In this document: one piece after another, positions 13,601 to 50,700 of the stretch | Numbering within the stretch: position 1 is the stretch's first letter | Layout: the number at the start of each line of letters is the position of its first letter | Source: Lytechinus pictus | Lineage: Eukaryota | Direction: 5' to 3' | Assembly: GCF_037042905.1 (NCBI RefSeq) | Contig: NC_087251.1 | Coordinates: 48,362,001-48,426,000, forward strand | Length of the DNA: 64,000 nucleotides | Position numbers and translations under genes: made by a program | Notes under the pieces: generated by a model | The model's input: only the letters and a program-made list of their open reading frames with translations | Databases searched by the model: none | What the model was told of the DNA's origin: nothing

Positions 13601-13988
13601 CCAAATGAAAATGAAAATCCATATTTCATTGTTCAAAATAGAAATCTGAAATTGAAATACTCCATGATCGTGGGCCCTGCAACACCTCCTATCCATCCAC
13701 AAGAATCAGATTTATTTTCCCAATCTCGCTGTTCACCACGGCCATAGTGGATAAACATCTCTGTGCAAACCAGAGCAATCACTATCAGTCAAAAATTTAC
13801 CCACATTGTGCTGCTCTTAACCCAGGTGTGGTAAATAGGTACCCAGCCGGATTAATTCCTTGAATGCACCGAGTGCTGAAAATGAAAGCTCGAGCTAAAG
13901 CCGGGTAAGAATAATAGTGCGCCTTGGAATATACATGTATCATATCTTGATAGATGCCTATTATCATAATCAATTTTGATGATGATCA

Positions 13989-14176
13989 TCAGTCGTTGAC
14001 CTGGTGGTCATTCCAGGTAACCGGCTGGCAGCGGATGTTGTAGTACGGGGAGCAGATCTGCTGGTATAGTGGCACACGATGAAAGATACCGATGTTGGCA
14101 AAGACCAGCTCAGAGCTGTAGTACGTGAAGAAGGGGCCCTCGCAACAAGAGCACTGTCGGACATTCCGCAGCATTT
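13989..14176 (-). CDS. LRR gene coding exon 9 (terminal)
   Basis: TTGTAG acceptor; MLRNVRQCSCCEGPFFTYYSSELVFANIGIFHRVPLYQQICSPYYNIRCQPVTWNDHQVND*. Confidence 0.85.
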
Positions 14177-17100
14177 CTACAATAAGAAAGAATCATATTC
14201 ACCCAATCAAGTGAATCCGCCTCAGTAGAGGACCATGGAAATCTTAGGAAAAATTAAACTTAAAGAGAAGTAAATAACATAAATTTGCAGTTTCTGGTCA
14301 AGCGGAGTTTACTGTAATGTTGTAAAATATTTCTATAATGAAAAGGAAGTGATATTCACTCGATCAAGTACTATCCGTACATTATCACAGGCTTAGTAGT
14401 TAAAAGATCCCAGACCCAACAAAAACAGAAATTTAGGCTATCACTTAATTAAGCTTCACTGGCACAACACAATAACATATGTAATGAGGCATGATACATT
14501 CTACCCAACCCTCTTACTACATAGCTTCTACCCACACTATAAGAACACAGGGGGATGTTTCACAAAGCAAAAAGTCAATACGTTTTACTGACTAAATTGT
14601 GTTTAGCCAATCACATGGAAGAATTTAAGAGGTTTATTGTCAGTGAAAATCACTGATTGCTTGAAATGCTCCCCAGATGTACACCTGGGCCCTGTCTTAC
14701 GAAGAGTTACGATCGATCCAATCAATTGTAACTTTATGGAAATCCATCAGTGTCATAATTTTTTTCTACAGGAAATTTGCAAAATGTCCTTTTTAATCAA
14801 AGGAGAACACCCCAAATTGTCAAGAATTCATTGAATTTATGGATATGGATTCATATCTAGAATTTTTTTGGAACAAATATGCATTTCATATGTTGACTTT
14901 GCTGGCTTTCCATAGTTGCGATTGATTGGATCAATCGTAACTCTTTGTACAGTGGGGCCCTGGGCCCTGTCTTACAAAGAGTTACGATTGATCCAATCAA
15001 TTGTAACTTTATGGAAATCCATCAGTGTCATAATTTTGTCTACAGGAAATTTGCACGTCTTTTGTAAACAAAGAGAAACACAGCAAATTTTCAAGAAAAC
15101 ATTGAATGCATGCATATACATCATAGAAAATAATATGAACAATTTTTTTGGAACAAACATGCATAATAGATGTAGACATTGCTGGCCGTCCATAGTTGTG
15201 ATTGATCAGATCAATCGTAACTCTTCGCAAGACTGGGCCCAGTGCATATAATTGAATCTTTCACTGGTTGCTAATATCAGTTTTAACTTTTACAAGTTTT
15301 ACCACAGTCAACTTTCAAATTCAACGGGATTATGGCACATTCTTAACTTCAACAGACAAATTCAATTCACATGAATGAGATACATATAAAGATAATAGAA
15401 CGGCCTTCTAACTAATTTTTCAAACTTTAATTCAATACCTGTATGTGTACAACTTCTACACAAGTGAACGATAAATTCAAAGGGCATCTTTATTCTTCAC
15501 ATTGATATCAAATGAAAACTTGAAGTTCTCTAAAACCAAAGATAGAAGCAGAGAAGCATTTCATGAAGAGATTTTGACGGTGATTTTCACTGGCTAGCCA
15601 ATCGGATGCAAGGATTTGCAGAAGCTTATACATCTCTTGGCGAAAATCACTGACAAAAACTCTTAATGAAATATGCCCCTCCCCCTGGTTTGGATGATGC
15701 GAAACATTGCTTATTTCACAATTTCTTTGCCGGCTTACCACATAGATTTGCGGGTAGATCTCCCTCGTTCCAGTTGAGCCCATTGCTTGATATACATCGA
15801 GCTGCTAGCTCCTGTAAGGGTGGTACACTGGTCTCAGGACGGAATGTCATCTTATTTCGAGAAGGCTGGTCCCACTCACCTATAAGCTTGTCATGATTTA
15901 CTTTATAAAAGAAAAGAAAGGTACATGTATTAGACAATCATTTTAGTCATCTTCTTTATTATCATTCATTATTTTATTCATTAGAGCGGTGTTGGCTCAG
16001 TCGGTAACGCGTCTACCCGTCGAACCAAAGATCGTGGTTCGAGTCCACCCCGGGCGGATGACTGAAGCCAGTGCGTTGTGTGTAAACGTCTCTCCCATGT
16101 TTCATAGATGCAGGCTATGTTACAATGGAAAACACACCGTCCCTCGGATAGGACGTTAAATGGAGGCCCCGTGTAGAGGAGAGTCATTACCTTCGCACGT
16201 TAAAAACCCACTGCACTATTCGTTTAAGAGTAGGGGGAAACCCCGGTGTAGTGGTCCACCTGCATTCCCCCCAATCAGTTATATCGGGAGGAGAGACCTG
16301 AGGGTCATAGTGATTAAGTTCGCTTTTCGCCTCCCAGGCACAGGTGACGCCAAACAAATAATAATAATAATAATAATGAAGGCAAACTGATTCCAATGTC
16401 CTATTTGCATCACATTTCAAGGATGCTGCTATGATTGCTATCTTAATCTCCCAAATATATTTTCTCAAGATTTTAACTAATTTTTATGAGAAAGATTAAT
16501 TTTTTCCATTTCTATGTTTACTATTTATTGAAGTTTCACAACTTAAGTCTCAACCACAGGCACTTGAACCAAATGATCAGATAAAGAATGGGGGGGGGGG
16601 GGGGTTTAAACATTGTGTGTTAATGACGAATATTCTACCACCAATTAGTTTGTCGGGGGGGGGGGAGTTGTTTCACTAAGATTTAAGTGTGGATCGGTGT
16701 CGCACTATTATTTTAGTTGCGTGCGGTATATAACGCAGCATCGCATTGGTCAGATCATGCACATGGGATGCGTATTCATCAATCAGACCACGCATTAAAT
16801 TACATGGGCCCGTCGGTGTTTAAGCATGACTCTATTATTGTCTTACTTAACTCTTCCTGAAACACCCCCCCCCCCCTGGCCACAACTGGTTCCAATTGGT
16901 ATCTCTCAAAACTTTATTATTTCAATAAGTGATTGGTAATAGTTGAAGACATGTCTTACCACTGAATGTATAAAGTTGAAGGTATGAGAGAGATGCAGGG
17001 AAGTACTCCAGAGGGTTGTTCCTGACATGCAGTTCCTTGAGAAGGTGAAGACGTCCTATCTGATCTGGTAAGGATGTCAACCTAAAGAAGATGAAATGAT

Positions 17101-20100
17101 CATACACCAAATTTTTTTCTCTCAAATATTTCTATTTTGTGATCACTTTTGATTGATTATCAGGGTTTATTAATGATTTGCTGAACTCAGTATTGCAATG
17201 AGCAATGACAGAAAATTAAAAAAACATAAAAAAAAGAAGATACAAATCAATCTATGATATAGTCTAGAAAGGCATTCATTGTGGGCACAATGAGAATACA
17301 TGTAGATCGACAGAACTGCTACAATCTACTATTGGACTGTAAGAATCAGTAGAGAAAAAATAGAAACTAGATGAATTCTCAACCAGTCAAAATTTATCTC
17401 TCTGCCACTGCCAGATCAAGTATATATCAAAACCCAACTACTAAATTTGTCAAATAATGACCTCTATGAATTTTGACCTTGGACAATTTGACCCCAAAAC
17501 CTGACCAGATTAATAATAATAATAATAATATAGGGTATTTATATTGCGCACATATCCACCTTGTTAGGTGCTCAAGACGCTCCTATATTACCCGGCTAAG
17601 CTAGGCGTTCATAGCGCACACAGCTTTTTAAGGAATTACTTCCTACCGGTACCCATTTACCTCACCTGGGTTGAGTGCAGCACATTGTGGATCAGTTTCT
17701 TGCTGAAGGAAATTACGCCATGGCTGGGATTCGAACCCACGACCCTCTGTTTCAAAGTCCGAAGACTAATCCACTGGGCCACAACGCTCCACTAATTAAT
17801 CTCCATTAATCTCTCTCAACTAAGTTTGAAGTTTATACCTTGAACCATTCTTCAGTTATTGTGAGAACATACCTTTGGCCAAGATACATGTCCCTACAAA
17901 CTAATCAAATCATAGTTACTCCTATACATATTCTCAGACTGTCTTTGAAGTTGATTTGTTAAAATCATTCTATGTTTATTATGAGAATTAAAAGAAAATG
18001 GATAGAGTGAAGGAACAATCCAAACCCATAATGTCTCCGAAAACCACCTACAATGGGTGGAGGCATAAAAATAACATAAATGTATTCCGATCTGTGAGTC
18101 ATCAATTATGTCGCATTTACCAATGAATCACTGACTTTCACTTTGGCTCAATCTCACATCTTTTCCACTCAATTTTGAAAGACGTACATTTATAAAAATT
18201 TTCATGGGCTACTTTTAAACCAGAAGCCTTAATCGGTGACACTGGATAAGCTATAACATTTTAGTGGATGGAGAATTTGTGCGACTCATTTTTTTTTTAT
18301 TTTCCAGGGCTCTCTTGAGCAATGTGGGGGCAAAATCACCCAGGGCCCTCATGTCATTTTTCCCTGTCCATGAAACTGTACATACCTGTTATTTGAAAGC
18401 CAGACTTTGTTGAGCGATGTACACCTTGATAGAGAGGCAGGGAGGTGGGTTAGTTCACAGGATGACACATCTAATTCAGTCAGGCGTACAAGCCTCCCAA
18501 AGGAAGAGGGTAAACTATGCAAACGGTTCTCTCCTGCATAGAAAATGTTCGCCAATATGATTGGTCATTCTAGTACGTGATTTCATAGTATTGTATGGGT
18601 AGTGGTAGTCTCCAAAATGCTGTTTTCATCTTAATTTTTTTGAAATATATATTATTTGTTTTTTCCCCTTTTTTAATTATATTTCAATTTTTGTAGTTGT
18701 TTTTGTTGTAAATCCTTTCTCCTGGAACTTTTTCATCCATCAGAATAGTTAGAGTATAGTATCGCTATTGGTTGTCTGTAAGTCCTTCTTGTTTTCATCT
18801 CATTTTTTTAAGTTAAATATTGTAAAATACATGTAACTGTTTTCTTTTTATTTAATAATCATTTCATTTTCTGAAAAAATATGTTCAATCTACCTTTTGA
18901 TAATTTTACTAAGATTAGGTATATTGCAGTCACATACAAGTCAAAAATGTAATTAAACATACATAGGAAGGACAATGCATCAGACACTGCTTTATCAGAA
19001 CATGCTCTCATAAAAAAACAGAGAGGTAACTGTTTCTTTATGTGTTGTAATTTGCATGTAAACAAAATGAATTTCCATTAAGTTGGACAATAAAATAACA
19101 ATATAATAACTTACACAATATAAGAGCCTGGAAACCAGGAAATAGTGCCATATTGGAATACTATTCATACAATCTAACCTTGTGCTGCAAAGTCAGTCAG
19201 CATGTTCGGGTTCGGCAATTTTTTTTCTGAACTTTGGTTTGTTCCGGGTTCGGCAATGAATGCTAAATTAAATTATTAACATATAAAATAAAGGATCGCC
19301 GACCCTCGGACAAAGTAACACGTTAAAGATCTGTCATTTATTTATAATAAATTTTGTTTCTAAAAAGAATGGTTAAAAAAATTGTTGCATAACTTTCTTT
19401 TATTTATTGTATTCTTTTAACAAAAATATGAGTCATTTCTACTTTCATTTTTAAATTGAATAAACAAAAACAAAGAAAATAATATTGATAACGAAAGAAT
19501 GAGGACAGAAACATAATTTAAAAGAACAGAATTTTTTTTTTCATGATTATTTCATGTAGATATGATCACGATCAATTACAATGTCATTGCAAACGCATCT
19601 TCTCTGATTGGGAAGTGTGGATCGGGAATGTCAAAACAGTAGACAAACAACCTCCACTCAACTGTTATTATAATGGTAAAATTCACATTCCAAAGAATAG
19701 GAAATGTTTTAGAAAGTCTCTATTCTCTGAAAAGTGGTTAAATCTGGTCAATCAATTACGGCAGTTTGGCTACAGCACTAATCTAACCTTAAAAAAAAAC
19801 CTACATCTTGTATTGAAATTCTTCAAGGACAGTTTCTATGATCCACAAACAAATGGCACTCACCAACATAGAGAGCGGTCAGATTGACCAGGTTGCAGAG
19901 TTCATCCGGGAGTGCGGTAAGCTGGTTGGAATGGGCACAGAGCTCCTCCAGGTGAGTCAACTGACCGATGCTACTGGTCAGTTCGGTCATCAGGTTGTTG
20001 GTCACATTGAGAATGACCAGGACTGAGAGCCGTCCCAGGGTGGTTGGCAGGGATTGGAGGTGGTTGTTCTTGCAGTCAAGCTCCTGGAGACGACTGAAGT

Positions 20101-23100
20101 TACCGATACATTTCTGATGAGGAAAGAGGAAACAAAAACACCCGATGAAAATAGACTATTCTGGAGATATTGCAAACATACAGACGATTCCCAAAATCCC
20201 ACAGACTGTAGAAGTGATGTGGATCAGCGGAAAGGTTCCTAGGCTGTGCACTACAAGATCCTGAGCTGAATTCCAATACTAGTGCCCCTTACAAGACATT
20301 AATATGTAGGCCATATGATATATGATAAGCAGTTTTGACAGGGCAAAATTCATGTAGAAAGAGTTATTTCTGGAAGCTATCTGAAATGCAGCAATTTATA
20401 TAGATTGTCATTGAGACAAAGAGATAATCTGAGGTGAATAGGCAAGTATAGATAGTATTGACATCTACAATGGTTGCACTATGAATTTCAATAAAGGGAA
20501 GTGGATTCTAATTTAAGTAGGGCAACTTACTGGCAGCTTTTCAAGGCAGTTGTATTGCAGAAAGAGTTGCTCTAATCCGCCCAGCAGACCGATCTCTTCC
20601 GGCAATGAGACAAGGCGATTGTTAGACAAATTCAGTACAGTCAATTGACGACCAACATACCCGATCAGCTGAGGGCAGTATTTCAAATTCATGTAACTGC
20701 AGTTTACAGAGACAAGACGATATGTTTATCAATAACAGATACGCAAAAAAAAAGAAGTAAATATACTTGAATCCATACCAGGCCTGAGAGTGGCCCTTTT
20801 CAAAAATATCTGTTTTTTGTGAACGTAGGGAGCGAAGAGTCTCGCACCTAACGGCCGAGGGTCCAGGGGCAACGCCCCGGAGGGGGTCAAGGGGGCGAAG
20901 CCCCCCAAAGGTCATGGATTTGGGGGTTTTCAGAGGATCTAGAAGGCATCTCCTCAACACCATGAAGTACCTGGAATTTGCTGTACAAATAGGGAAAAAA
21001 TTGTGTTTCTGAGGCACAAAGTGCTTAAATTCACCAGGAAATATACTTTCATTGGTAGTGCATGCAACAATACCTCTCAATTATACATGTTAGAGGTTTA
21101 TGAGATTTTGAGTTCAATATTTCTGAATCAAATGCACAATACGTACATTAAATAATTGTATAGTAAATCTTGTGAGCATCATACATGTGCTGCTTGATCA
21201 TGCTCCAGCCGCCATTCGCGTACTTGACTTCTTTATTACACCACGTACATGTAGTAAGCTTTACCGGGTTCCTCAATTTTCCGTATGCACTCACTTGCCA
21301 CCCTTCCATCCACTGATTTTTCAACCCACTTCCAAGTCCATTTCTCACAAACTGAAGCGTCGATCCCTTTCACCCTCGCCTCTTCACCTCGATCAAGAAA
21401 TTTTGGTTGAAAAGCCATAATTTTTCTCAAACTTTTCTTGTTTTTCCGCTCGCACTAAAGAACTCCCGTATTGACAAATCACCGTAATCACGCCTAGCGC
21501 TAACCTAGGGAGCTCCCACCCGCTTCGCGGGCCAGAGTTCCCTGGGTTATCCTAGCGCCTGCATGCATGCATAAATTGAATGCAGCCATCGCGCATGCAC
21601 CGAGTGCACACTGTTTCCTCCACTGCAACGCGCGAACGGTCTGGTGGGTAATACAAAATGGCAGCGCCCATGATCAATACCGACCGTGTGCGATTAACTT
21701 CAAATAGCCGTCGAAGAATCAAGTTTTCGAATGCATGACGGCAATTTTTAAGATAAGTAACGACAGCAAGTTGCCAGAACTAATAACTTTGTGTGAATTT
21801 GGGCGCAATGTGTCCTTCATTTTCTAGCAATTTTTGTGAATAAGGCATTGAAAATAGACACCCTAACCCCTCTTAATTTTATACCGGATTTACATCGATC
21901 TCAGAGACCACCTATGTTGGTGAAAAAAAATCTGGAACCCGGTAAATATCGGGAGAATCTCAGGCCTGATCAATACCCATTGATATTAAGTATTGTAATA
22001 TATCGAGCGTCGGTGTCATCTCTTAAAAACCCTTTTTTTAGGCTACTGACTCATCACTTTCAATTCAAGCTAAAGCCGGGGTAATAATAATAAACAAGGC
22101 AAACGCCAAGCGTTGTCTCACCTGCATATTGCAGTCATGAAGAGACTGCATATCAAATCTGAAGGGTAACATTTAAGAAACTTTGACAGCTTTTCTATTG
22201 TACCATTGGCAAATATGTGTGAATATTATAAATGGTGCCAAGAACTATAGCTCATTACATAAATAACAACAGTTTTTAAAGAATAAACAAGTAAAATACA
22301 AAATATGGTTCAGGTATAGAGAGTACTGAGTTCTGAAGTAAAATGTTAGTGTTAAAAAGTATAAAATTATAAAGTTCATGTCACTAGAGGGACAAAGTAG
22401 TGTGAAAGTTCATTGACCTTTGACCTTAATCAAATTCAACTCACATTCGAACCTGACCTGCACCTTCAAGAGATGGACCTCTGTTACGAGTTTGGCGATC
22501 CCACCTCGAAGCTATAGAAAGTTATTGAGTGTACAAAATAGCACAGTGCCAGTCATGGAAAGTTCATTGACCTTTGACCTTAATCAAATTCAACTCACAT
22601 TTGAACTTGACCTGCACCTTCAAAAGATGGACCTCTTGTATGAATTTGGCAATCCTACCTCGAAGATATAGAAAGTTATTGTGTGTACAGCACAGCACAG
22701 TGCCAGTCATGGAAAGTTCATTGACCTTTGACCTTATTCAAATTCGGCTCACATTTGAACTTGACCTGCACCTTCAAGAGATGGACCTCTGTTATGAATA
22801 TGGCGATCTCACCTCGAATCTATAGAAAGTTATTGTGTGTACAACACAGCACAGTGCCAGTCATGGAAAGTTCATTGACCTTTGACCTTATTCACATTCG
22901 ACTAATATTCGAACTTGACCTGTGCCTTCAGGAGATGAACCTCTGGTATGAATTTGGCGATCCCAACTCGAAGCTATAGAAAGTTATTGTGTGTACAACG
23001 CAGCACAGTGCCAGTCATGGAAAGTTCATTGACCTTTGACCTTATTCACATTTCGACTCAATTCAAACTTGACCTGTGCCTTCAGGAGATGGACCTCTGG

Positions 23101-25681
23101 TATGAATTTGGTGATCCCACCTCGAAGATATATAATGGTAGAATCTGATTGGATGTCAGCAAAGTTCTAACATTTATTGACCTGAAGTATCATGAAACAG
23201 AGCTCGTTCCTTATTAGATGAGAAACTTGTGCACATAATTTTTACTATTTACAGGTTAATTACTATTTTATAATTGGAAATTCAAGAGTTTCACTAACCT
23301 GATATCTAGTTCTACAGGTTTTTCACCACACGCAGTCTTCACCATACCCTTGGCTTTGACATCCCCTGTCCCATGGGCTGAACAGATCGATAATTTGTTA
23401 GCTCGGCAACAGGCCCCACACTGCTTATACCTACACAATATGGAAACAATATTAAAAACTCCAGCTTGCTTGAAACTCATACGGACAACATCAATAAGTT
23501 CTGAATCTAAACTACATAAAACACAAAGGAATACAGGAAACTTACGAATGAAACATGTTCTTACATGTAAAGGTCAAGTCCACCCCAGAAAAATGTTGAT
23601 TTGAATTAATAGAGAAAAATCAAACTAGCATAATGCTGAAATTTTCATCAAAATCAGATGTAAAATAAGACAGTTATGACATTCAAAATTTTGCTTATTT
23701 TAAACAAACAGTGATATGCATAATTCAGTGACATGCAAATGAGACAGTAGATGATGTCCATCACTCACTATTTCTATTGTTTATTATTGTTTGAATGATA
23801 CAATATTTCATTTTTTTACATATTTGACAATTAAGGACCAACTTGACTGAACCATATAGTATCAAACAATGCTAATTCCACATGTTCGCGACGAATTAAT
23901 TGTTGTTTCACTTGGCAATGATGAGAAAATTAGAATATTTCATATTTCATTTCATAAAATACAAAAGATATAGTGAGTGGATGACGTCATCAGTCTCCTC
24001 ATTAGCATACTAACCAGAATGTGCATATACATGTAACTGTTTTGTGAAATTTAGCGAGACTTTAAAATATCATATCTTTCTTATCTTAAATCTGAGTTTG
24101 ATGAAATTTTCAGTGTTATTCATGTTGGATTTTTCTCTTTTAATTCAAATCAACTTTTAGTTGGGGTGGACTTTTCCTTTAAATGAGTGATGGGTTTGGA
24201 CAGCAAACTACTCACTTACCTCTATCAGTAACAACACAATACCCCCTTCCTTATCCCTCTATCTTTCTCGTCTCTCTATATCAATGACTCACTCACCGGC
24301 ACTTCCTCTTCGCTGGCAAAAGCCTGCAGCTCCTGCAGGAAAGGGAGGGTTGTGACCTGGGGATTTCCCTACAAGATATGATGACCTCACCACCGGAGCG
24401 CCGGGGACTGTCCCTCCTCATGTTAGATAAGAAGCGCTCATGTTTGCGGTGCTGCAAGTACAAAGAGGTGTGATGGCTCATTCAGTTTGGAACACTGACG
24501 GATCCAGGGGGGGGGGGGCAAAGCCAGCCCATGCCCCCCCCCTTTGAGAGGCACAATTAAAGTTTGCAATGTAAAAATACTGTTAAAACAGAAGTGTGCC
24601 CCCCGCCCTTTGGAATAGAAGACCCTTTTTTTTTGCTTGTCAAATATTTTTGTGGACGAAATCTCCCTATTTTTTTGTTGAAATTTTTTTTTGCCTAGAA
24701 AAATGTGCACCCCGCCCCCTTTGGAACATCCTGTATCTGCCCCTGGTTTGGAAATATAATTGTATCAATTGACAAACTTCACTCTATACTGATTAATGAT
24801 ACATGTAAGTTGATGTTGCAAAAGGGGTCCTACTGTACATGCAACATCTCCATGGAGGGGGGGGGGGGGGTCATAGGGTTTTAGTTTTGTCAAGAGGCTA
24901 GAAATTATCTGGTGTAAATGTAAATGTCTTCCACATAGGATATTCCAGATGACACCAATAGCTATTAAAGCCATGTTATGGTCCCTGCACACTAAAAACA
25001 ACTTTAATGCATGTGTGTCAAGGAATGATATTCCTTTATAAAATAACTTTGCCATCCAATGGTAGTGACCATGGTAACTAACGCTGATCTACAGCCTATC
25101 AAAATCAAGGATTCCATGCAAGTTACCACTGGATGGCAAAGTTACCATAATGGTAACTTTAATGCAACAGGGCCCTGGTATCGCATCACAGTTTGCTCCA
25201 AATTTGTCTATGACTGCTAAACAAAATTTCCTTTGACTGTGTTGCCATTTTCACACAAATGTAGGACTTTAAAATACATAATTGAAAGCTTTTCTCCAAC
25301 AACCACAAATGCTAATAAATCTCTGTATGTATCACATGGACGTATCTGGATAATAAAATCACTTGTACTTACTGTAATCCATCTCTTTGTATGGCCTGCC
25401 GTTACACCCGTTGCGGCAAACGCAACCTCATCTCCCCTGGCACCACACCTCCTCTTGGTCCCACCATGCCGCTCTGTTCCCCTCTTGGCTGGCACCCCTT
25501 TGCGGAGCAGCCCCCAAACCAGGCAGCCCACCGTGAAGGAGAGCAGACCCAGGATGAAGATGGCCAAGGCGAAGGACTGGAGGTCATCGGTGGTCAAGAG
25601 AAGGTCACTCAGTCCGGACATGATGTAATGCCATCCCGAAGGGAGGAGACTCTGGAAGGTGTCAAGCCAGCATGGCCCCAT
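13989..25681 (-). CDS. Spliced gene: transmembrane + Cys-rich finger + leucine-rich repeat protein with LRRC58/LRRC69-like C-terminus (543 aa)
   Basis: Hand-assembled join(25681-25373, 24451-24297, 23430-23299, 20696-20531, 20113-19864, 18533-18386, 17081-16960, 15900-15739, 14176-13989). All introns are GT-AG with matching phases, total 1632 nt, one open frame. About 10 LRRs of 23 aa (LxxLxLxxNxLxxLP) run across exon junctions. Confidence 0.85.
14686..15242. mobile_element. Two tandem ~275-bp MITEs (PIF/Harbinger-like termini)
   Basis: GGGCCCTGTCTTAC-AAGAGTTACGAT...ATCGTAACTCTT...GGGCCC occurs twice head-to-tail. Confidence 0.65.
15739..15900 (-). CDS. LRR gene coding exon 8
   Basis: Pyrimidine tract + AAG acceptor, GTAAGC donor; NHDKLIGEW...VPPLQELAARCISSNGLNWNEGDLPANLC. 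Confidence 0.85.
15984..16378 (+). mobile_element. tRNA-derived SINE with (TAA)n tail
   Basis: A box TGGCTCAGTCGG, B box GGTTCGAGTCC, (TAA)n tail. Confidence 0.75.
16960..17081 (-). CDS. LRR gene coding exon 7
   Basis: TTTAG acceptor, GTAAGA donor; LTSLPDQIGRLHLLKELHVRNNPLEYFPASLSYLQLYTFS. Confidence 0.9.
17511..17792 (-). mobile_element. tRNA-derived SINE with (ATT)n tail
   Basis: A box TGGCCCAGTGG, B box GGTTCGAATCC, core AACCCAGGTGAGGTAAATGGGTACC; relatives at 33058-33296 and a decayed one at ~13740-13970. Confidence 0.8.
18386..18533 (-). CDS. LRR gene coding exon 6
   Basis: TATGCAG acceptor, GTATGT donor; ENRLHSLPSSFGRLVRLTELDVSSCELTHLPASLSRCTSLNKVWLSNN. Confidence 0.9.
19864..20113 (-). 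CDS. LRR gene coding exon 5
   Basis: Polypyrimidine tract + CAG, GTGAGT donor; KCIGNFSRLQELDCKNNHLQSLP...LCNLVNLTALYV. Confidence 0.9.
20531..20696 (-). CDS. LRR gene coding exon 4
   Basis: CTGCAG acceptor, GTAAGT donor; YMNLKYCPQLIGYVGRQLTVLNLSNNRLVSLPEEIGLLGGLEQLFLQYNCLEKLP (not in the ORF track in this frame). Confidence 0.9.
20779..21968 (-). mobile_element. hAT-like deletion derivative with frameshifted BED zinc-finger transposase remnant
   Basis: TIR CAGGCCTGAGA / TCTCAGGCCTG; 8-bp TSD ATCCATAC/ATCAATAC; minus-strand MAFQPKF...IRKIEEPGKAY then, in another frame, CTWCNKEVKYANGGWSMIKQHMYDAHK. Confidence 0.75.
22093..23130 (-). mobile_element. HINE family A copy, inverted and 5'-truncated, ~5 x 154-bp repeats
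   Basis: Reverse complement of the 666-1950 element, including its ~250-bp unique spacer; 5' terminus missing. Confidence 0.75.
23299..23430 (-). CDS. LRR gene coding exon 3
   Basis: TGTAG acceptor, GTTAGT donor; YKQCGACCRANKLSICSAH...PVELDI; phase 2 to 2. Confidence 0.8.
23571..24178. mobile_element. TTAA MITE, same family as 3446-4046 (opposite orientation)
   Basis: Same TIRs and body. Confidence 0.8.
24297..24451 (-). CDS. LRR gene coding exon 2
   Basis: TTGCAG acceptor, GTGAGT donor; HRKHERFLSNMRR...CRSCRLLPAKRKC; phase 0 to 2. Confidence 0.75.
25373..25681 (-). CDS. LRR gene coding exon 1 (start codon, TM helix)
   Basis: Acceptor TTTCTTCCTTCACAG ends at 25706; in-frame TAG upstream of the ATG (GTCATGG context). 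Encodes MGPCWLDTF...FALAIFILGLLSFTVGCLVWGLLRK...RWIT; donor GTAAGT at 25372. Confidence 0.75.
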
Positions 25682-26436
25682 GACTGCACGCACTGGCTAG
25701 CGTGTCTGTGAAGGAAGAAACACAAATATAGTCAAACTTTAATGTTAAGTGTCTCATACATGTAGGAGAGAATAAAATTGGTCTTCATAAACCTAGAAGT
25801 TTGTCTTTATTGTACAAGGTTACATTTGTAACACAATATCTATATTTTCATTTGGTGACAAACATGTACATGTACTTACAAATTGCACAATTATGTAGCC
25901 ATGTAGGTACCAATATATCTCATTGTTACATTATTTAATATGACTTTTTCATCATGCAAACCGAATCAGCATCAATATTCCCTAGGGCTATAAAGTTTTC
26001 CAATTTACTCTATATAATGCCTAGTACCCACAAACACTCTTAAAAGATTTTGTCTGAAGAGGTGTCATACATGTACATGTAGTCTCTCCGGAGCATCATA
26101 AAACCTATTTTTATTACAGATCTATTTACAATCAACCCTATTCAATTCAAATTTATGTCCACAAATTAAGTATAAAAAAACACAAACAAACCTAAATACA
26201 ATCAAAATACATTTAAAATCAGTTTGAATATATTACATTAATACAAAAAATATCAAAATGCGCGTGTGTGCATGGGGGGGGGGTGGTATTGGTAAAGGCC
26301 ATATTGATCTACCAAGGTCAATCCCCAGTGACAACATAAATTTCATGAATTACAAAGAATGAAAATATTGAATATTAAATTTAGGAATGCAGACCTAGCG
26401 CAATAATGAAGAGCAAAGCTATCAAACAAATTACAG

Positions 26437-26660
26437 GAGGACATGGTGGCTCAGTGGTAGAGCGCCTGCCCCATGAACAGGAGGTCGTGGGTTCGATCCC
26501 TGGCCAAGTTATACCAAAGACTAAAAAAAAGGGATTTTCTGCCTTCTTGTCAGGCGCTTGATGTATGAGAATGGAAAAGGGTAATGTTATGCACCCCTGG
26601 CCTGCTGGAAGTTCACAGCTTACAGCTGAGAGTGCCTGGGTAAACTTTATTATTATAATC
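26437..26660 (+). mobile_element. tRNA-derived SINE
   Basis: A box TGGCTCAGTGG, B box GGTTCGATCCC, (TTA)n tail. Confidence 0.7.
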
Positions 26661-27625
26661 ATAAAGATCGGAGTGTGGGGAATGAGTGTGGGACAACCAA
26701 TTTAATCGCTTAAAAAGAGCAACAACATATACATGTAAAATATGTACATGTAGACAGCTTACAAGTTGAAGGACTACCAACATTTAAATCAATAGTACAT
26801 GTGAACACACATGTTGTTGAAGAGAGCAACAACTGAAATCTGTCATTGGAAAATGTTAAAACTTTCTACTTTAAAATATTAGTTTGACCAAGGATTTAAA
26901 CTGTAAATTTAATTTTCTTCATTTCTTTGTATACGATGGTACATGCATACTACGAAATGTGAGATACAGACACTTGGATATTTTTGGTAGGGTCTTTACA
27001 AACAGATTTAAGAAATCAATGAAAATTTATTTCGCATTTTAGGTCTTTCTTTTGTTCCTTTGGCCTCAAATGGTAGTCTACTACTGTCTTATGCAATCAA
27101 CAGCGCTTTGTATCCTCTGGAAAAAGCGCTATATAAATCCAATTATTATTATTATTATTATTACTATTGCACTCAAAAGACTGCTATGTTAGTTGAAATT
27201 ATCATGTTTCATAATTTATTTTGAAAATGTCAAATGAAGCAGGAATACCAATGAAATTATTTCAAATCTACATACTGTACTCTATGTGTGTATATAATAC
27301 CCTTTTAAGCTATTAAGAAGGTACTGTACAGCTTCAGGTACACATCCCTTGGGGCACAATTTTGAGGGAGTGTGATCCCCTTCCTCTTTGCGATTCAGGT
27401 CACCACAAATCTCGGATCCTATAATGATCTGGACCTACTCACGTCACTTTGTCCATATTTAGGCATGGGTTAGATTTCAGATTGGGTTATCACAGGTTGA
27501 ATTACACCTTAGCCTCTTGATAGATCTATGTACAGTACATGTAGATCCCCTAATAAGGCACACTGGACAGGTCATTCTCTTCAGAAGTAATGTTGCACAT
27601 TACTAAGGTCTGCACAAATCATTAA

Positions 27626-28213
27626 AGGGATGGTCCGGGCTAAAAATATGTATATCTTAATACATAGAGTAGAATTCACTGAGCAAAATGCCGAAAGTCT
27701 CATCAAAATCGGATAACAAATAATAAAGTTATTGAAGTTTAAAGTTTAGCAATATTTTATGAAAACAGTCGTCATGAATATTCATTAGGTGGGCTGATGA
27801 TGTCACATCTCCACTTTCCGTTTTCTTATGTTATTACATAAAATCATATTTTTGTCATTATTTCATACTTGTGTGAATACTATGTCTCCCTCATAATGAA
27901 ATAAGTTGCAGCAATACATATCTACCGGTAATGCACTTAATGAGTTGTCAATCCAATTTTTCTAGTTCTTGGAGGAAAACATTTGAATAAACCTAATTTC
28001 AAATAATAAAATACAAAAGAACAAGTGGGGATGTGACATCATCAGCCCACCTAATGAATATTCATGACAACTGTTTTCACAAAATATTGCTAAACTTTAA
28101 AATTCAATAACTTTTTTATTTGTTATCCGATTTTGATGAAATTTTCGGCATTTTGCTCAGTGAATTCTACTCTAGTTATTAAGCTATAAATACTTTCAGC
28201 CTGGACCATCCCT
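27626..28213. mobile_element. TTAA-flanked palindromic MITE
   Basis: TTAA|AGGGATGGTCC...GGACCATCCCT|TTAA with inverted arms of about 200 bp. Confidence 0.8.
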
Positions 28214-28400
28214 TTAAAGCCTGTATTTTTTGGTAAATCCCCCCCCCCCCAAACTGACTGTAACTATTCCAATTTATGACTAGATTATGAATAATTATAC
28301 ATCATGAATACTTACTTTGATTGGGAGCCTGTTGTGCACTGTGCACACCCCCCCCCCCCTCCCCTTAGGATGAGTTCTCAAGCACGGAATGACCATTGTA

Positions 28401-30581: not shown

Positions 30582-30921
30582 ACCTTTACCCCTTTTGTGC
30601 CAGCTGGATCTGAGGACATAACTGAATCTGAACAAAAGATTATATCAGAGATCTCCAGCATTTTTCACTAAGTTTTTATCATTTAAGGTGGGTTAACATT
30701 CAATTTTCATTTAATACTTGTTTCTCCACACTTTTCCCAAGCTTGGCAATGATTAACAAAATGAAAATCAAGCTTAAGCCATTCCATATAAATCACAGCT
30801 CAGTGTAAAGCAAATATCGTCACGATGGCCTCGGTGTGCGGGGAGTGGGGTGGGGCGCAATGCACTCTTTGAAGTGTTTTGGGCAAGGAAACAAGTTTAA
30901 AAAGGTAAAAGATATCTTTAA

Positions 30922-44485: not shown

Positions 44486-45606
44486 ATATAGGGATCAACT
44501 TTTTTTTTAAACATATTAATCAGTTGCCATGGCAACGGCGGAAGGAGGCATTTATGAAACTGGCAACAAGCGGATTCATGTTCAGCACCATCAAAATAGA
44601 GGAAATGACACAAAAAATCAGATTCTAAAGAAAAGTCTACTTGAAAAATTATGACAATTCCGTTTAGGCCCTATATACTCTTACAATGATTATCATACAC
44701 AATCAGGGTGAGCGGAGTTAGGGCAGGCTGCTATCTCAAGGTATGCCCTCGCTAATTCATTCACACAACAAATATTCATTCTAGAAAAAATTGTCATGAC
44801 GACATATCAGGACCTCCCGCACCTGCGACTCTCACATTTTCATTCATCATATAAGAATATAACATTTTTCACTGTTTTTAGGAGTTTTTAAAGTGATTGA
44901 AAAAAAAACGTAATTTGGTGCAGTTGCGGTACAGTTGATCGAAGTTCAAACAGTTATCGGGTTACTTTACATTTAAAGCAGTATTTCACGATGATTAATT
45001 AAGGGATTGATTTTATTTTTCCACACTTTGTTTTTTCATGTAATGGTCTCCTCTTGGGTGCTTAATTATGCGAGTATACTAAACAATAAGGAATTTGGGA
45101 CGAATTTAAAATGATAATCATAATAAGCAGCGTGCGCATCGCGCTTGTGAGGGTGAGCGAGAATTGGGCAGCGTACGGTACATCCAACACAAAAAATCAA
45201 ACTCAAAGTCAAACCAAGGCCAAGGGCAAGGCTTCACCATTTAAAAAAAAAATAAATAATAATTTTTCTGCTCTTGAATAAACTTAATTTAACTCAGTCT
45301 CAGGGACAGGGTGAACTTCCCTTTAAGTACGTGAAGATTCTATGACTAGATCATAGATCAAATGGAAGTTAAAACTTCAATTTGGGGTAGGCCCTATAAG
45401 AAATTAATTAATACTTATCGACGTCAAGTCTGCTAGTTAGCTACATCTGGCAATTTAGCTCCTTTGCAATTTGAATACATTTGACACGGAACCGTGATTC
45501 CTGTATTTGAGATGTGTGCATTCGAATCGCACACGCTGGAATACGATATTTCTACCTCGAACTATGATCTACGATCTAGTAAAGCAAGAAATAAACGGTA
45601 TCTTAC

Positions 45607-46153
45607 CATTATTTGCGTTGAATTTTTGCAGTGAGCTCGGCTTGCAGTCTCAAAGAAAAATATACGGGTTCACAAATATTTAGGCACATGTACTATCTAA
45701 TAATGATTGTGGATTGGCGGCGGAAGTCGGGAGGAGATGGAGGCTGCTCAAGTCAAGGGAACCCGACTGGGTCGCTCGCTATCGCGGAGCGTTTGTAGCT
45801 AGTCGCGGATAATATTGGATTACAGCCAATTTGATTTTTTTGAATATAATAATGATTCCATCATAATTTCTATAAGATATATATTTTATTAATGAAAAAA
45901 AAATTAATTTTTTGAAAATGAATATATAATAATAAGACTAAATACATTCCTAAAGTATTTTTTCTGCAAAAAATATTTGTTCTCGTTTTAATAAATATTG
46001 TCCATTACTATACCGTAAGTACTAAGTAAACTGATCGAATTTCGGCGGTTACTTCACCACGCGGGGGCGTGACCTTATGCGTTGTGATTGGAATCCATCC
46101 ATAATTGCATTGCCATTGTTTGGACCCCCAATTCCCTCTCACTCAGTCTCAGA
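45607..46153. promoter_or_regulatory. Putative bidirectional promoter and non-coding first exon of the minus-strand LRR gene
   Basis: Locally CpG-rich non-repeat sequence. Minus-strand donor G|GTAAGA at 45607/45606; ETS-like CGGAAGT at 45721; CCAAT boxes near 45713, 45826 and 46087; YY1-like AATGGCGGC over the PEX6 start codon. Confidence 0.5.
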
Positions 46154-47776
46154 ATGGCGGCTTTTATGAGTTTTCCTGTCACTCGGACCCACGCGAAATT
46201 TTCTCGATTTAACTTTCCTGTAGACCACAATGCTCTCCACCTTGGCATATCTAAGAGTGCATCTAGTAGATTTCTAGGAGATAAACTTGACAATTATGGC
46301 TATGCAATTGTGTCTCTGGTTACTGAACATGAAAGCTCAACTGCAGAGGACAGGGAGCTGTTTGTTTGTTTACAGATTTTAGATGATGCGGTGGTGAAGA
46401 AATCCATCTCACTTTCTCAAGTGTCAGAATGTCCAGATACTGTTACTGTCTATGCAACTGAAATGTTTCATAAACACTACAAAATATTAGATCATGAAGA
46501 CGTCTACATCAGACCCGTCAAATCGTTTCCTCTCGCAAAGGCTGTATTTGGAGCAAGGACAAGCAGATGCTACGAATGGTCAAAGAAGAGGCTTTTTAGT
46601 ACAGGACTCCTTGTGTCGGCATGTCAACAAAAAGTCTTAGTGCGGGCAAACGATAGATTTCTTGCACCTGTTATCCCAGTGTTTAGTGGGGATGAGACGT
46701 ACAGCCTAGCGAACTACATGGATTTGATTGCCTTGGAATGCGAGCCTGTTACGCAAGGGATAATTTCAGTCAACACCTCAATTGTGATCACAGATATTTC
46801 TAGTAGTATTGGCTTCCCAGATGAGACACATATCAGCCCTAGACCAAACAGAATTGACAGAAAAGATGGATCTGAAGACGGAATGGAATCACCTTGTTTT
46901 GAGCTCCCGGAACCTCGCATCATGTCTGATTTTGCCCAAGGACTGCTTGAGATTGAAGACCACCATACAGTACAAAATCAGCACTCTGATTCTGGTACAG
47001 CTGATGACATGTCTCTTTCATCTGGAACTACGATTAACATGAATGGTGAACATCGTACTGCCTCCAGTCTTCTGTTGAGACCAGTGTTGATGCCAACATC
47101 TTCTGCACATCGGAATACCTTTGGAAAAGGGAACAGATCCATTTCTAGTTCATTCATTGGTGACCAATGTGAATTAGCTTATAAGCTTGGTGTGACAAAA
47201 GATACACTCGACAAACTTCATGCGTACAATGGTAGTTGGGTCACAGTAACATTGGCAGAACATCCATCAGAGACGGAAGATGAAACTGTGAGAGCAGACC
47301 TAATCAATACGGACGTTGAACTTGACGAAGCTGCCGTCTCAATACTCGTCCCAAGACCTGGTAATCTGGACCACATTCAAATATCCACCCCTAAAAATTT
47401 GCCTGTGAAATCAGTCTCGTCAAAGCCACCAATGTCTGACCAAACAGCCTCTGATTCACAGAATGATGTCATTGATTCCAAGGAGGACAAAAGAAATGAA
47501 CAAAAGGATGAAAAGACATTGGATCAACCTCTGCTTCCATCTCAAGAAGGTCAACAAAAGCGAGCCCATCTCGCTCAAATCTTTGTTGTCAACCCCAAAC
47601 TCTTCCCAAATGGTGATAAGAGGGGTAGGAGAAGTGGAGCCCATGTTCCTTTTAACTCAAATGAAGTTGAATTTATTGTGGAAAACGATTCAGTGGCGAT
47701 ATCCCCACAGCTTTGGTTCAACATCCAAGATCACCCTTCTCAACTCATACAACCAGATACCATGGTGTCTGTAAAG
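46154..47776 (+). CDS. PEX6: PEX6 exon 1
   Basis: Long ORF from ATGGCGGCT; donor AAG|GTAGTT; 541 codons. Confidence 0.85.
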
Positions 47777-50700
47777 GTAGTTGTTTTATGGTTTGAACCT
47801 TTTAAACTTGATTTTTTTTTTAACCCATGTTGGTTCAGTATCCAATGTGAACTAATGGTATGAAGTACTTGTACTTTTGTAGTTTGTTGAATTCCATATA
47901 GAAAAGGGATTAATTAGCTACTGTATTATTGTCCAGTTTACAAATTTCTTGTTTGGAATGATTTTGAAATTCATGTATTTTCTAATTTTTGTCTCGCCTG
48001 CGTAGCGGAGCGAGACATAGGTATCACTATTTCCGTCGGCGTCGTCGTCAACAATTGTGTTGTACACCCAATAACTTTCTATATCTTCGAGGTGGGACCA
48101 CCAAATTCATACGAGAGGTCCATCTCCTGAAGGCACAGGTCAAGTTCGAATTTGAATAAGGTCAAAGGTCAATGAACTTTCCATGACTGGCACTGTGCTG
48201 TGTTGTACACACAATATCTTTCTATAGCTTCGAGGTGAGATCGCCAGATTCATACCAGAGGTCCATCTGAAGGCACAGGTCAAGTTCGAATATGAGTCGA
48301 ATTTGAATAAGGTCAAAGGTCAATGAACTTTCCATGACTGGCACTGTGCTGTGTTGTACACACAATAACTTTCTATAGCTTCGAGGTGAGATCGCCAAAT
48401 TCATAACAGAGGTCCATCTCTTGAAGGTTCATGTACAGGTCAAGTTCGAATATGAGTCGAATTTGAATAAGGTCAAAGGTCAATGAACTTTCCATAACTG
48501 GCACTGTGCTGTGTTGTACACACAATAACTTTCTATATCTTCGAGGTGGGATCACCAAATTCATACCAGAGGTCCATCTCCTGAAGGCACAGGTCAAGTT
48601 CAAATATGAGTCGAATTTGAATAAGGTCAAAGGTCAATGAACTTTCCACGACTGGCACTGTGCTGTGTTGTACACACAATAACTTTCTATAGCTTCGAGG
48701 TGAGATCGCCAAATTCATAACAGAGGTCCATCTCCTGAAGGTACAGGTCAAGTTCAAATTTGAATAAGGTCAAAGGTCAATGAACTTTCCATGACTGGCA
48801 CTTTGCTGTGTTGTGCACACAATAACTTTCTATATCTTCGAGGAGGGATCACCAAATTCATACCAGAGGTTCATCTCCTGAAGGCACACGTCAAGTTCGA
48901 ATATGAGTCGAATTTTAATAAGGTCAAAGGTCAAAGGTCAATGAAGTTTCCATGACTGGCACTGTGCTGTGTTGTACACACAATAACTTTCTATAGCTTC
49001 GAGTTGAGATCGCCAAATTCATAACAGAGGTCCATCTCTTGAAGGTACAGGTCAAGTTCGAATTTGAATAAGGTAAAAGGTCAATGAACTTTCCATGACT
49101 GGCACTTTGCTATGTTGTGCACACAATAACTTTCTATATCTTTGAGGTGGGATCACCAAATTCATACCAGAGGTCCATCTCCTGAAGGCACAGGTCAAGT
49201 TCGAATATGAGTCGAATTTGAATAAGGTCAAAGGTCAATGAACTTTCCATGACTGGCACTGTGCTGTGTTGTACACACAATAACTTTCTATAGCTTCGAG
49301 GTGGGATCGCCAAACTCGTAACAGAGGTCTATCTAAGTCATATAGCATAGTTTTGACATGCAGTCTCTTCATGACTGCAATATGCAGGCGAGACAACGCT
49401 TGGCGTTTGCCTTGTTCTTAAAACTAGAACCAGTAGTAAAAACAATAACTTTATTCAAATTTTTGTCAACTTTTATTTTTTAGATTTCTAAATTTTCTTT
49501 TTCTCAATTTCATTGTCTCAGTTATCATTTTCCTCCACTGACATCTTTTGATATTCATTTAGCTTGCCACAGATGAACTAGAAGAATACTCTAGTATTCT
49601 AGCCACATCACAGAGTATCACAACAAGCTGCAAACCTCCTATTGCCACTGCTGTTCATCTCTCCCTCATCAAGTCACCACACTATCCAATGACAAGCCAG
49701 TTTGATGATGCAATAAAGAAGTACTTCTCTGTCACAAGGCAAGTCAATCAAAATTCAATACATGCTGGTGATTTACAAGCAAGAAATTTGATGACAACAT
49801 ATCTTGTCATGTTAGCAAAATGGAGTTGTAGATTGCTCAACTCATTTTTGACATTTTACATCTTAGTGAACTAAGTTATTCTGAATTTCATGAATTAGTT
49901 CAACTAATACACAAAACCAGAGCAACTTTCGCAATGTAGGCCTATCTGTATCTGCTTCAGCGATGTACTTGTACACAAGAACGAATGGCCCGTGCTATGG
50001 AGATTACCTTCATAGAGATAATGTAGTCAATCCCATCAGCTTATTACAAACATGTAAATTTGTTGCTTTCACAATATTTTTATTTTCTTAAATGACAAGT
50101 CCACCCCAACAAAAAGTTGATTTAAATAAAAAGAGAAAAATTCAACAAGCGTAACGCTGAAAGTTTCATCAAAATTGGATGTAAAATAAGAGAGTTATGA
50201 CATTTTAAAGTTTCACTTAATTTCACAAAACAGTTATATGCACATCCTGGTTGGTATGCAAATGAGGGGACTGATGACGTCACCCACTCACTATTTATTT
50301 TTGATTCTATTCCAAGAAATATGAAATATTATGATTTTTTCCCGTTTGTCATGTGAAATCGAGCTTTATTCCTCCCTGAACATGTGGAATTAACATTGTT
50401 TAACATTATGTAGTTCAGTCAAGTTTTTCATTATTGTTGATTCTGTAAAAATTGAAATATTGTAAAATTCAAACAATAAAAAACAAAAGAAATAGTGAGT
50501 GATGGACATAATCGATTCTCTCATTTGCATAACACTGAGTTGTGTATACTGTTTTCAGAAAAATAAGCGAAACTTTGAAAATGTCATAACTTATTTTATA
50601 TCCGAGAAGGAAGAAATTTTCAGCGTTACGATTATTAGATTTTTCTGTATGGATTCAAATCAACAATTTTCTGGTGTGGATTTGACCTTTAACCTTGCTA

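Follow-up and report, generated by a model that had tools for sequence, protein, structure and literature searches.

A leucine-rich repeat protein with a predicted membrane anchor and a BC-box/CUL2-box tail in echinoderms, hemichordates and amphioxus

Gene structure and genomic neighbourhood

In the window, i.e., the whole stretch of 64,000 nucleotides of Lytechinus pictus DNA that was analysed, nine coding exons on the minus strand are separated by GT-AG introns and give a single open frame of 543 amino acids. Coding exon 1 (25373..25705, ATG at 25681; aa 1-103) encodes a short N-terminus, a predicted transmembrane (TM) helix and a basic linker, coding exon 2 (24297..24451; aa 104-155) the end of a disordered linker with the first three cysteines of a Cys7-His finger, and coding exon 3 (23299..23430; aa 155-199) the remainder of the finger and the N-cap helix of a leucine-rich repeat (LRR) domain. 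The LRRs occupy coding exons 4 (20531..20696), 5 (19864..20113), 6 (18386..18533) and 7 (16960..17081), the latter carrying the last of them. Coding exon 8 (15739..15900) encodes an insert of about 25 residues, a BC-box and the start of a CUL2-box, and coding exon 9 (13989..14176) the end of the CUL2-box, four invariant cysteines, a C-cap-like two-stranded sheet and the stop codon, past which the 3' UTR runs on.

The 543-aa product shows no difference from RefSeq XP_054758106.2 (stored protein P0014, named "LRRC58-like", L. pictus). One 1864-nt contig of run X1 matches 13886-14176, 15739-15900, 19863-20113, 20531-20696 and 25373-25706, with unlisted gaps corresponding in length to exons 7 plus 6 and 3 plus 2, and with 104 additional bases at its 5' end; a 1823-nt contig of run X15, from a separate study, presents the same exon chain. 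Introns are absent from the contigs of both runs, X1 being taken as RNA by guess only and X15 being of unknown kind, and raw RNA reads (X22, X23) exhibit the strand bias expected of a minus-strand transcript. A reading made earlier from the sequence only (hereafter the sequence-only reading) had proposed nine exons, the TM exon being spliced to those that encode the LRRs and the tail; GT-AG boundaries, RefSeq identity and intron-free contigs bear out the exon number, and single contigs from two studies the splicing.

Upstream of the coding exons, a mostly non-coding first exon may lie on the minus strand at 45558..45711, with an approximate 5' end and a donor at either 45606 or 45557. It was placed by two 4-residue words from the N-terminal extension of isoform P0013 of L. 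variegatus, each with a sole match in the window, which stand in order, 34 nt apart, and end at a donor; an ungapped scoring scan did not locate this exon. On the plus strand, the first coding exon of PEX6 (46154..47860) matches Pfam DPBB_PEX6 at E 0.0019, below the cut-off, and the gene continues, with an AAA exon at 53.5-53.8 kb (AAA, E 4e-10). The region in between (45712..46153), which contains CCAAT, CGGAAG and GC motifs, is probably a bidirectional promoter region shared by the two genes, and the CpG observed/expected ratio reaches 1.55 at 45501-46000. The head-to-head position with PEX6 put forward earlier holds for the putative first exon at about 45.56-45.71 kb, some 450-600 bp from PEX6, but not for the coding start, which is 20 kb away. 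The caution then voiced about a link with PEX6 was apt: the promoter region is probably shared, and nothing here ties the functions of the two genes.

Conservation across species

The whole architecture, namely an N-terminal hydrophobic helix, a basic linker, a Cys7-His finger, about 10 LRRs and the tail, is conserved in this order in 18 named species of echinoderms, hemichordates and amphioxus. The gene is shared by sea urchins, sea stars, acorn worms and amphioxus; database searches of limited reach found no named vertebrate or protostome match. The tree puts LRRC58 on a very long separate branch and, with 7 of its 14 inner branches open, does not settle how the phyla relate to one another or where the pair P0043/P0026 belongs. 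Searches of the L. pictus genome with exon 3, exon 9 or a divergent tail, in which few candidates were scored, found this locus only; exon 8 retrieved this locus and LRRC58, and the LRRC58 tail retrieved LRRC58 itself and this locus. No LRRC28 or LRRC69 paralogue surfaced in these own-genome searches, which score few candidates.

All the parts listed in the sequence-only reading, i.e., the hydrophobic helix, the basic stretch, the Cys/His cluster, about 10 LRRs and an LRRC58-like tail, are present, and the question it raised of whether the fusion is conserved across metazoans finds a positive answer in echinoderms, hemichordates and amphioxus. For the architecture, which it did not recognise, no characterised orthologue group with the same parts was found; the literature searched yielded neither an earlier description of the family nor an experiment on any of its members.

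N-terminal helix and Cys7-His finger

The hydrophobic helix at aa 37-55 scores 2.56 as a Kyte-Doolittle 19-mer, the next best segment reaching 1.23, and a single TM helix is predicted at aa 37-59 (25505..25573, minus strand) from hydropathy, charge bias and an AlphaFold2 helix at aa 34-60. An N-terminal hydrophobic segment occurs in 21 of the 24 proteins examined (KD19 scores of 1.98-3.01, where no other segment exceeds 1.42), the N-terminus being missing from the remaining three, although this and the other 21- to 24-row counts overstate independence because many rows are near-identical species pairs. A helix with acidic residues ahead of it and basic ones after it has the charges expected of a signal-anchor whose C-terminus is cytosolic; here, the net charge is positive after the helix in 18 of 21 proteins and before it in none. 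Taking hydropathy and charge as the two measures, we infer single-pass membrane insertion with the C-terminal side in the cytosol.

The Cys7-His finger (aa 142-174; 23373..24337, minus strand) is split by intron 2 and follows the pattern C-x2-C-x8-C-x4-C-x2-CC-x7-C-x2-H. The C-terminal finger of tRNA enzymes of the DUS1L type may be similar. All six finger stretches submitted matched DUF702 (PF05142) and no other family, the best of them marginally (E 4.2e-4, 21.3 bits for a cut-off of 20.6); with whole proteins and E up to 10, DUF702 appeared in 9 of 12, and in three of four further ones (P0043, P0023 and P0030) it did not. Among the matches listed, the alignment covers the 151-position profile no further than position 35 for P0001 and the stretch from P0002, and position 55 for P0039. 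The fold of the finger is predicted at low confidence (pLDDT <50 in one AlphaFold2 model, about 57-64 in another), its profile gave only chance matches in the PDB (best E 0.16), no usable match was obtained in the Atlas, and the search for DUF702 in the same genome returned two weak matches below cut-off, unlike the Cys7-His finger. Respective to the plant SHI/STY/SRS finger, for which the available text of PMC10576376 gives CX2CX7CX4CX2C2X6C, the Cys/His order is common to both, whereas each of two loops holds one residue more here. SHI/STY/SRS proteins are nuclear transcription factors with a C-terminal IXGH/IGGH domain, which is absent here, the finger being placed instead in a predicted membrane protein whose remainder consists of TM helix, LRRs and cullin boxes. 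On the whole, the finger appears to resemble the plant SRS/SHI (DUF702) finger weakly but consistently, and the protein would bind zinc; a finger of a type described as plant-specific would thus stand in an animal membrane protein.

LRR domain and C-terminal tail

The LRR domain comprises nine regular 23-aa repeats flanked by one N-terminal and one degenerate C-terminal repeat, and its solenoid is predicted at pLDDT >90. In 12 diverse rows, the concave-face positions x5, x7 and x8 are 94-95% conserved vs 34-67% at convex x positions. By region, identity to P0014 amounts to 70% in the LRRs, 71% in the Zn tail and 44% in the BC/CUL region. That echinoderms, hemichordates and amphioxus all keep this binding face nearly invariant suggests a single conserved substrate.

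Pfam has no family for the tail, and its single exons matched nothing relevant in the PDB. As a profile, it matches residues 257-341 of human LRRC58 at E 9.4e-11, followed by LRR1 (E 6e-4 and 0.013) and FEM1C (E 1.1), so that the four best of eight PDB matches are all CRL2-type receptors. Whole-model fold searches listed generic LRR proteins, LRRC58 and LRR1 not being among the matches listed, and the nearest named Atlas clusters for the tail, by language-model features, are LRRC28 (0.97), LRRC58 (0.95) and LRRC69 (0.95).

The BC-box consensus reads (S/T/P)-L-x3-(C/A/S)-x3-hydrophobic. At aa 455-464 (15820-15791, minus strand, within exon 8), the BC-box aligns gap-free to LRRC58 261-270, with L456, E458 and R462 invariant in 21/21 rows and position 460 occupied by A, S, T or C. 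The CUL2-box, searched for as phi-P-x-x-phi-x-x-x-phi 8-23 residues past the BC-box, is found at aa 476-484, about 12 residues past it, and keeps the consensus in all 21 rows. In the accessible part of the LRRC58 literature, mutation of A267, L282 and L290 abolishes function, these residues being needed for Cul2 binding; they align to A461 (Ala in 19 of 21 rows, Gly in two), L476 (hydrophobic in every one of the 21 rows) and L484 (kept in 21/21), respectively. The four tail cysteines (490, 493, 523 and 531) are invariant across 21 rows, the first three aligning to LRRC58 C296, C301 and C331; since C531 aligns to C339 and not to C335, the Zn site differs in detail from that of LRRC58. In the AlphaFold2 model, residues 456-466 form the BC helix and 478-485 the helix of the cullin box, while 502-510 and 514-522 pair as a two-stranded sheet, with block pLDDT of about 71-86, a layout like that of LRRC58 as described in the available text of PMC13156300. 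When the tail (aa 445-535) was modelled in complex with two pieces of Elongin C encoded by exons of the same genome, the score was 0.54, against controls of 0.00 and 0.00 with the partner replaced and 0.52 with chain 1 replaced, an outcome that counts neither for nor against binding.

Relation to LRRC58 and other receptors

The canonical LRRC58 gene of the same genome lies elsewhere (G000:C8, about 1.80-1.81 Mb), keeps the cysteine-sensing residues and the terminal VLLG, and shares about 30% identity with the 543-aa protein. In the family described here, LRRC58 P297/N298 are deleted, D317/F318/C319/Y329 are changed, Y322 is replaced by His or Phe and the terminal VLLG is absent; at F318 and L330, the hydrophobic class alone is kept. 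Identity as the LRRC58 orthologue was considered and rejected, the true LRRC58 being on another contig and the cysteine-sensing residues being lost.

The present protein and human LRRC58, the CRL2/CRL5 receptor for CDO1 (PDB 9T7V), have the same succession of parts in common: nine LRRs in collinear register, a BC-box, a CUL2-box and, past the cullin box, a Cys4 loop plus a two-stranded sheet or C-cap. Added here are the TM helix, the basic linker, the Cys7-His finger, an extra repeat and the insert of about 25 residues before the BC-box, while the residues that sense cysteine and the closing VLLG are missing. The combination of LRRs, BC/CUL2-box and Cys-rich tail is also that of LRR1 (a CRL2 receptor), LRRC28 and LRRC69. 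To our knowledge, these three are soluble and have neither TM helix nor finger, as the sequence-only reading also stated of vertebrate LRRC58, LRRC28 and LRRC69 regarding their N-terminus. By its action at a membrane, ASB11, an ER-associated and Elongin BC-dependent CRL5 receptor for ribophorin 1 in the available part of its description (PMC4812663), comes close, but it combines ankyrin repeats with a SOCS/CUL5 box and no finger, compared with LRRs and a CUL2-box here.

Discussion

The protein possesses sequence features of a substrate receptor, namely a BC-box, a CUL2-box and a separate LRR domain with a conserved concave face, and, since both boxes align to the Cul2-binding residues of LRRC58, the membrane-tethered cullin-RING receptor suggested earlier is the best reading, homology of the tail being what favours it. 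We put at roughly 65% the probability that it sits in a membrane as an integral Elongin BC-CUL2(/5) substrate receptor whose substrate is conserved. Weighing against this are the lower conservation of the BC/CUL region compared with the LRRs and the Zn tail, the low-confidence fold of the finger with its marginal DUF702 match, and the shifted fourth cysteine of the tail. In such a single-pass protein, the short N-terminus would be lumenal or outer and everything past the helix cytosolic; the C-terminal BC-box would bind Elongin C and the CUL2-box cullin-2, possibly also cullin-5, for ubiquitylation. A Zn-stabilised two-stranded sheet may cap the LRR solenoid as in LRRC58, and the conserved concave face together with this cap may recognise a single, specific and conserved substrate on the membrane or close to it, the disordered basic linker of about 70 residues giving reach. 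The SRS-type finger beside the LRR N-cap could serve as an extra binding module for a partner, nucleic acid or lipid.

Cullin-2 receptors are normally soluble and have to reach clients in membranes from the cytosolic side. One that carries a TM anchor of its own would concentrate CRL2 at a single membrane, as is known mainly for RING ligases; the literature searched offered no example of a membrane-anchored LRR/CUL2-box receptor. The conserved substrate could be sought in a tractable model, i.e., L. pictus embryos. A bolder version, which seems improbable, makes it an integral-membrane CRL2 ligase of ancient origin that vertebrates have lost, located on the peroxisome (or ER) membrane, co-expressed with PEX6 via a shared promoter and ubiquitylating a conserved membrane client for extraction by an AAA ATPase. 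Were it true, the SRS-type finger, described as plant-specific, would turn out to be a binding domain general to eukaryotes and put to new use in the quality control of membrane proteins.

Alternatively, though this is unlikely, the protein could be a membrane-tethered SHOC2-like LRR scaffold for a signalling complex, the BC/CUL2-box serving mainly to control how the protein itself folds or is turned over, and not the degradation of a separate substrate. By sequence and by structure (Z 32.3 and an rmsd of 1.4 over 257 residues), SHOC2 ranks with the best LRR matches, and LRRC58 is controlled by auto-ubiquitylation through the same boxes in the accessible part of its literature. However, the likeness to SHOC2 is that of generic LRRs, at about 30% identity, level with bacterial LRRs, and does not cover the tail, while a full CUL2-box kept in all rows fits a working ligase module.

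It is less likely still that the helix is not a stable anchor but a cleaved or import targeting signal, or amphipathic, with a mature protein that is soluble or intra-organellar and a cullin box that is a relic or acts only on un-imported protein. Hydropathy is the sole measurement, AlphaFold2 places an additional helix (aa 4-30) ahead of the hydrophobic one, and both the N-terminus (24%) and the TM segment (43%) are poorly conserved, all of which would suit such a signal; against it, 20-40 net-acidic residues precede the helix and basic ones follow, and a Cys-rich finger and cullin boxes make sense only in the cytosol.

A membrane-bound functional duplicate of LRRC58, degrading CDO1 or a related cysteine-metabolism cupin enzyme, is very improbable. 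The repeat register is collinear with that of the same-genome LRRC58, and two of four named CDO1-contact residues, Y172 and R243, are apparently kept as Y336 and R407, an equivalence drawn via the repeat register with no direct alignment to the human LRRs. Yet the genome has a canonical LRRC58, complete with all the regulatory motifs, at another locus, the paralogues match at only 8 of 27 concave x5/x7/x8 positions, and the changed or deleted residues listed above, the absent VLLG, the extra repeat and the insert ahead of the BC-box all stand against this activity.

That gene prediction fused an unrelated membrane exon onto an LRR gene, as exons 1-3 without a Pfam match of their own and the truncated or mis-spliced models P0004, P0022 and P0024 might suggest, is already refuted, unless the contigs are chimeric, by the joining of all exons in intron-free contigs from two studies, the identical order of parts in echinoderms, hemichordates, amphioxus and the divergent protein P0043 pointing the same way. 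The database entries of this family named "LRRC58-like" are mislabelled, in that they do not correspond to the cysteine-sensing ligase and are not to be read so in expression studies.

Gene Structure, Expression and Conservation

The LRRC58-like gene comprises nine exons on the minus strand, running from 25681 to 13989, with GT-AG introns and a single open frame whose 543-aa product shows 0 differences from the stored Lytechinus pictus protein (P0014, i.e., RefSeq XP_054758106.2, "LRRC58-like"), which bears out the nine-exon model of the sequence-only reading. Four sequencing runs were placed on window positions 13500-33400, the splice joins being read from contig alignments and lengths. A 1864-nt contig of run X1, guessed to be RNA, aligns in ordered blocks, namely 13886-14176, 15739-15900, 19863-20113, 20531-20696, and 25373-25706, its unaligned gaps being exactly as long as exons 7+6 and exons 3+2, and carries 104 additional bases at its 5' end. 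A 1823-nt contig of X15, a run of unknown kind from a separate study, is consistent with the same exon chain, and both contigs join the TM exon at 25.4-25.7 kb to the LRR exons. In raw RNA reads (X22 and X23), first mates fall on the plus strand in quiet exon-bearing bins (e.g., 2.1 vs. 0 at 25452-26115), the pattern that a transcript from the minus strand should give. The fusion is a genuine product of splicing, and the gene is expressed and conserved. Two intronic repeats of very high read depth, at approximately 15990-16390 and 17530-17790, look tRNA-like by eye and are probably SINEs.

Orthologues were collected by three word-indexed searches (12/12, 8/123, and 18/135 candidates passing) and by cluster look-ups. 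As for conservation of the fusion across metazoans, named orthologues occur in 12 echinoderm species (urchins, sea stars, crinoids, and sea cucumbers), 3 hemichordates and 3 amphioxus species, together with more divergent unnamed relatives (~53% identity) such as P0043, a full-length protein that has the finger, the tail and a hydrophobic N-terminus. When exon 3 by itself was searched exhaustively, seven proteins matched, namely one named orthologue, five unnamed finger fragments, of which P0030 has a hydrophobic N-terminus too, and one repeat protein rejected as spurious. In the family counts given here and below, where many rows are close species pairs, the hydrophobic N-terminal segment is present in 21, the full finger in 20 and the BC-box in 23 of the 24 proteins examined, parts being absent because of truncated or mis-spliced models. 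These searches, limited in reach, matched no named protein from vertebrates, tunicates or protostomes, and the family was likely lost in vertebrates. The Cys tail and the LRRs are closest in sequence to the urchin protein (71% and 70% identity), the finger and the helix less so (60% and 43%), and the linker least (12%); conservation of 94-95% at concave-face LRR positions, against 34-67% at convex ones, points to one long-kept binding partner. In Ptychodera, isoform X2 (P0008 vs. P0009) lacks 44 residues equivalent to focal exon 3, an in-frame loss that takes out the N-cap helix and the greater part of the finger. This suggests that the intron position is conserved and that a splice form without the finger may exist.

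Protein Architecture

The sole strongly hydrophobic segment, aa 37-59 (Kyte-Doolittle 19-mer of 2.56, next best 1.23), has an acidic N-terminal and a basic C-terminal flank, as the proposed helix followed by basic residues had implied. The Cys/His cluster corresponds to a finger at aa 142-174 (C-x2-C-x8-C-x4-C-x2-CC-x7-C-x2-H), and the "about 10" LRRs to nine regular 23-residue repeats (217-423) with one irregular repeat on each side. AlphaFold2 predicts a helix (34-60), disorder (61-125), an N-cap helix (176-191), and an LRR solenoid of pLDDT >90, with no confident fold for the finger; the tail is folded with a 21-row alignment of family members (block pLDDT ~71-86), most of it being at pLDDT <50 with 12 rows.

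All six finger stretches match Pfam DUF702 and no other family (best E 4.2e-4, 21.3 bits for a cut-off of 20.6 bits), while whole proteins match it weakly in 9 of 12 cases in one set and 1 of 4 in another. The DUF702 finger is RING-like (CX2CX7CX4CX2C2X6C), belongs to the SHI/STY/SRS transcription factors and has been described as specific to plants (PMC10576376). Literature matches for DUF702 in animals all concerned plants. The ligand order is identical in the focal finger, two of its loops being one residue longer, and the two fingers are probably homologous. The IXGH domain of plant SRS proteins is absent, and the focal protein does not qualify as a member of the DUF702/SRS family. DUS1L-type enzymes presumably carry a similar finger.

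The C-terminus had been likened to that of LRRC58, and a profile of nine tails matches human LRRC58 257-341 (9T7V) at E 9.4e-11, followed among its eight PDB matches by LRR1 (6e-4 and 0.013) and FEM1C (1.1). In the Atlas, a resource of protein clusters scored by language-model features, the LRRC28, LRRC58, and LRRC69 clusters score 0.95-0.97 for the tail; a literature search on LRRC28 with BC-box or CUL2 gave no match. The LRRC58 tail is described as a BC-box, a canonical CUL2-box also engaging CUL5, a zinc loop, and a two-stranded LRR-capping sheet (PMC13156300). Its residues A267, L282, and L290, needed for activity (bioRxiv 10.1101/2025.09.23.678073), align to focal A461 (kept in 19/21 rows), L476 (hydrophobic in 21/21), and L484 (21/21). 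The CUL2-box consensus, as given in PMC3355856, is satisfied in all 21 rows, the four tail Cys are invariant across them, and the AlphaFold2 model contains both helices and the sheet. Judged by its sequence, the protein qualifies as a candidate CRL2 substrate receptor.

Proposed Function and Relation to LRRC58

With a probability of roughly 0.65, we read the protein as a membrane-anchored substrate receptor. It would be signal-anchored with its C-terminus in the cytosol, the tail would recruit Elongin B/C and CUL2, perhaps CUL5, the LRR face would present a conserved substrate for ubiquitylation, and the finger, flexibly tethered, would provide a further binding module. The membrane-tethered cullin-RING receptor of the sequence-only reading is thus supported, in this conditional form, by BC-box, CUL2-box, LRRC58-like tail and helix. 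ASB11, an Elongin BC receptor at the ER, offers a precedent (PMC4812663). A survey of the human ubiquitin system lists RING ligases and E2s with transmembrane segments but, in the survey text available, no cullin receptor of that kind (bioRxiv 10.64898/2026.03.13.711689). No description of the family was found among the matches listed, in titles and abstract openings, on LRRC58-cullin, LRRC69, the DUS1L zinc finger, membrane-anchored BC-box proteins, transmembrane cullin receptors, ASB11, and LRRC58 with echinoderm or amphioxus, subscription literature lying mostly outside this scope. It is apparently an undescribed paralogue group of LRRC58/LRR1-type receptors, marked by a TM anchor and an SRS-like finger.

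That the protein is instead a membrane scaffold using its boxes for its own turnover seems unlikely, and a helix that targets without anchoring somewhat less likely still. A membrane-bound duplicate of LRRC58 function is more doubtful again: the two sets of repeats align in register, and the CDO1 contacts Y172 and R243 of LRRC58 apparently persist as Y336 and R407 (by register), but an exon 8 search of the same genome located the canonical LRRC58 orthologue on another contig (C8, ~1,804,000-1,808,300; loci L005 and L010), sharing only 8/27 concave positions with the focal protein. This three-exon gene keeps intact cysteine-sensing/regulatory motifs and the terminal VLLG, whereas in the focal protein P297/N298 are deleted, D317, C319, Y322, and Y329 changed, and VLLG absent; the LRRC58-CDO1 pathway is likely present in sea urchins. 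With ~30% identity between the two and a long separate branch in the tree, sequence comparison makes the focal protein a separate paralogue, not an LRRC58 orthologue. An artefact has a negligible chance, as contigs X1 and X15 join the exons and the architecture is conserved across species. The Elongin C gene of L. pictus, with three exons, lies on contig C17 (~4,463,400-4,467,500; L008 and L011).

The PEX6 Neighbour and Repeats

The claimed head-to-head position with PEX6 stands only through an inferred first exon, PEX6 starting at 46154 on the plus strand, 20 kb from the focal ATG. In L. variegatus, the longer isoform P0013 is extended at its N-terminus by 22 residues. Two 4-residue words from this extension each have a single match in the window, ordered on the minus strand at 45609 and 45575 and adjoining donors at 45606 and 45557; donor 45606 plus the 104 unplaced X1 bases reaches ~45711. 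Very probably, then, only 450-600 bp separate the focal first exon from the start of PEX6, around a CpG-rich region with CCAAT and CGGAAG motifs. Its two putative donors (45557-45609, minus) would be alternatives, and the extension frame kept in L. variegatus is broken in L. pictus by a frameshift and stops. Genes are frequently paired head to head, often without any relation in function, so a peroxisomal role is improbable.

At 53727-54223, a 167-bp tandem repeat (2.9 copies) spans the 3' end and donor of a PEX6 AAA exon; this partial exon duplication could allow alternative splicing. A 76-aa open frame at 550-777 (minus) resembles a coding exon of another gene, with no above-cut-off Pfam match. 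Three arrays in introns or intergenic DNA share a 154-bp unit (736-1642, 22404-23132, and 48146-49334), and RNA reads at 22.1-23.4 kb, strongly strand-biased, may derive from other copies outside this region. Units of 162-192 bp make up a second repeat family, which occupies 41822-43662 and 62772-63837.
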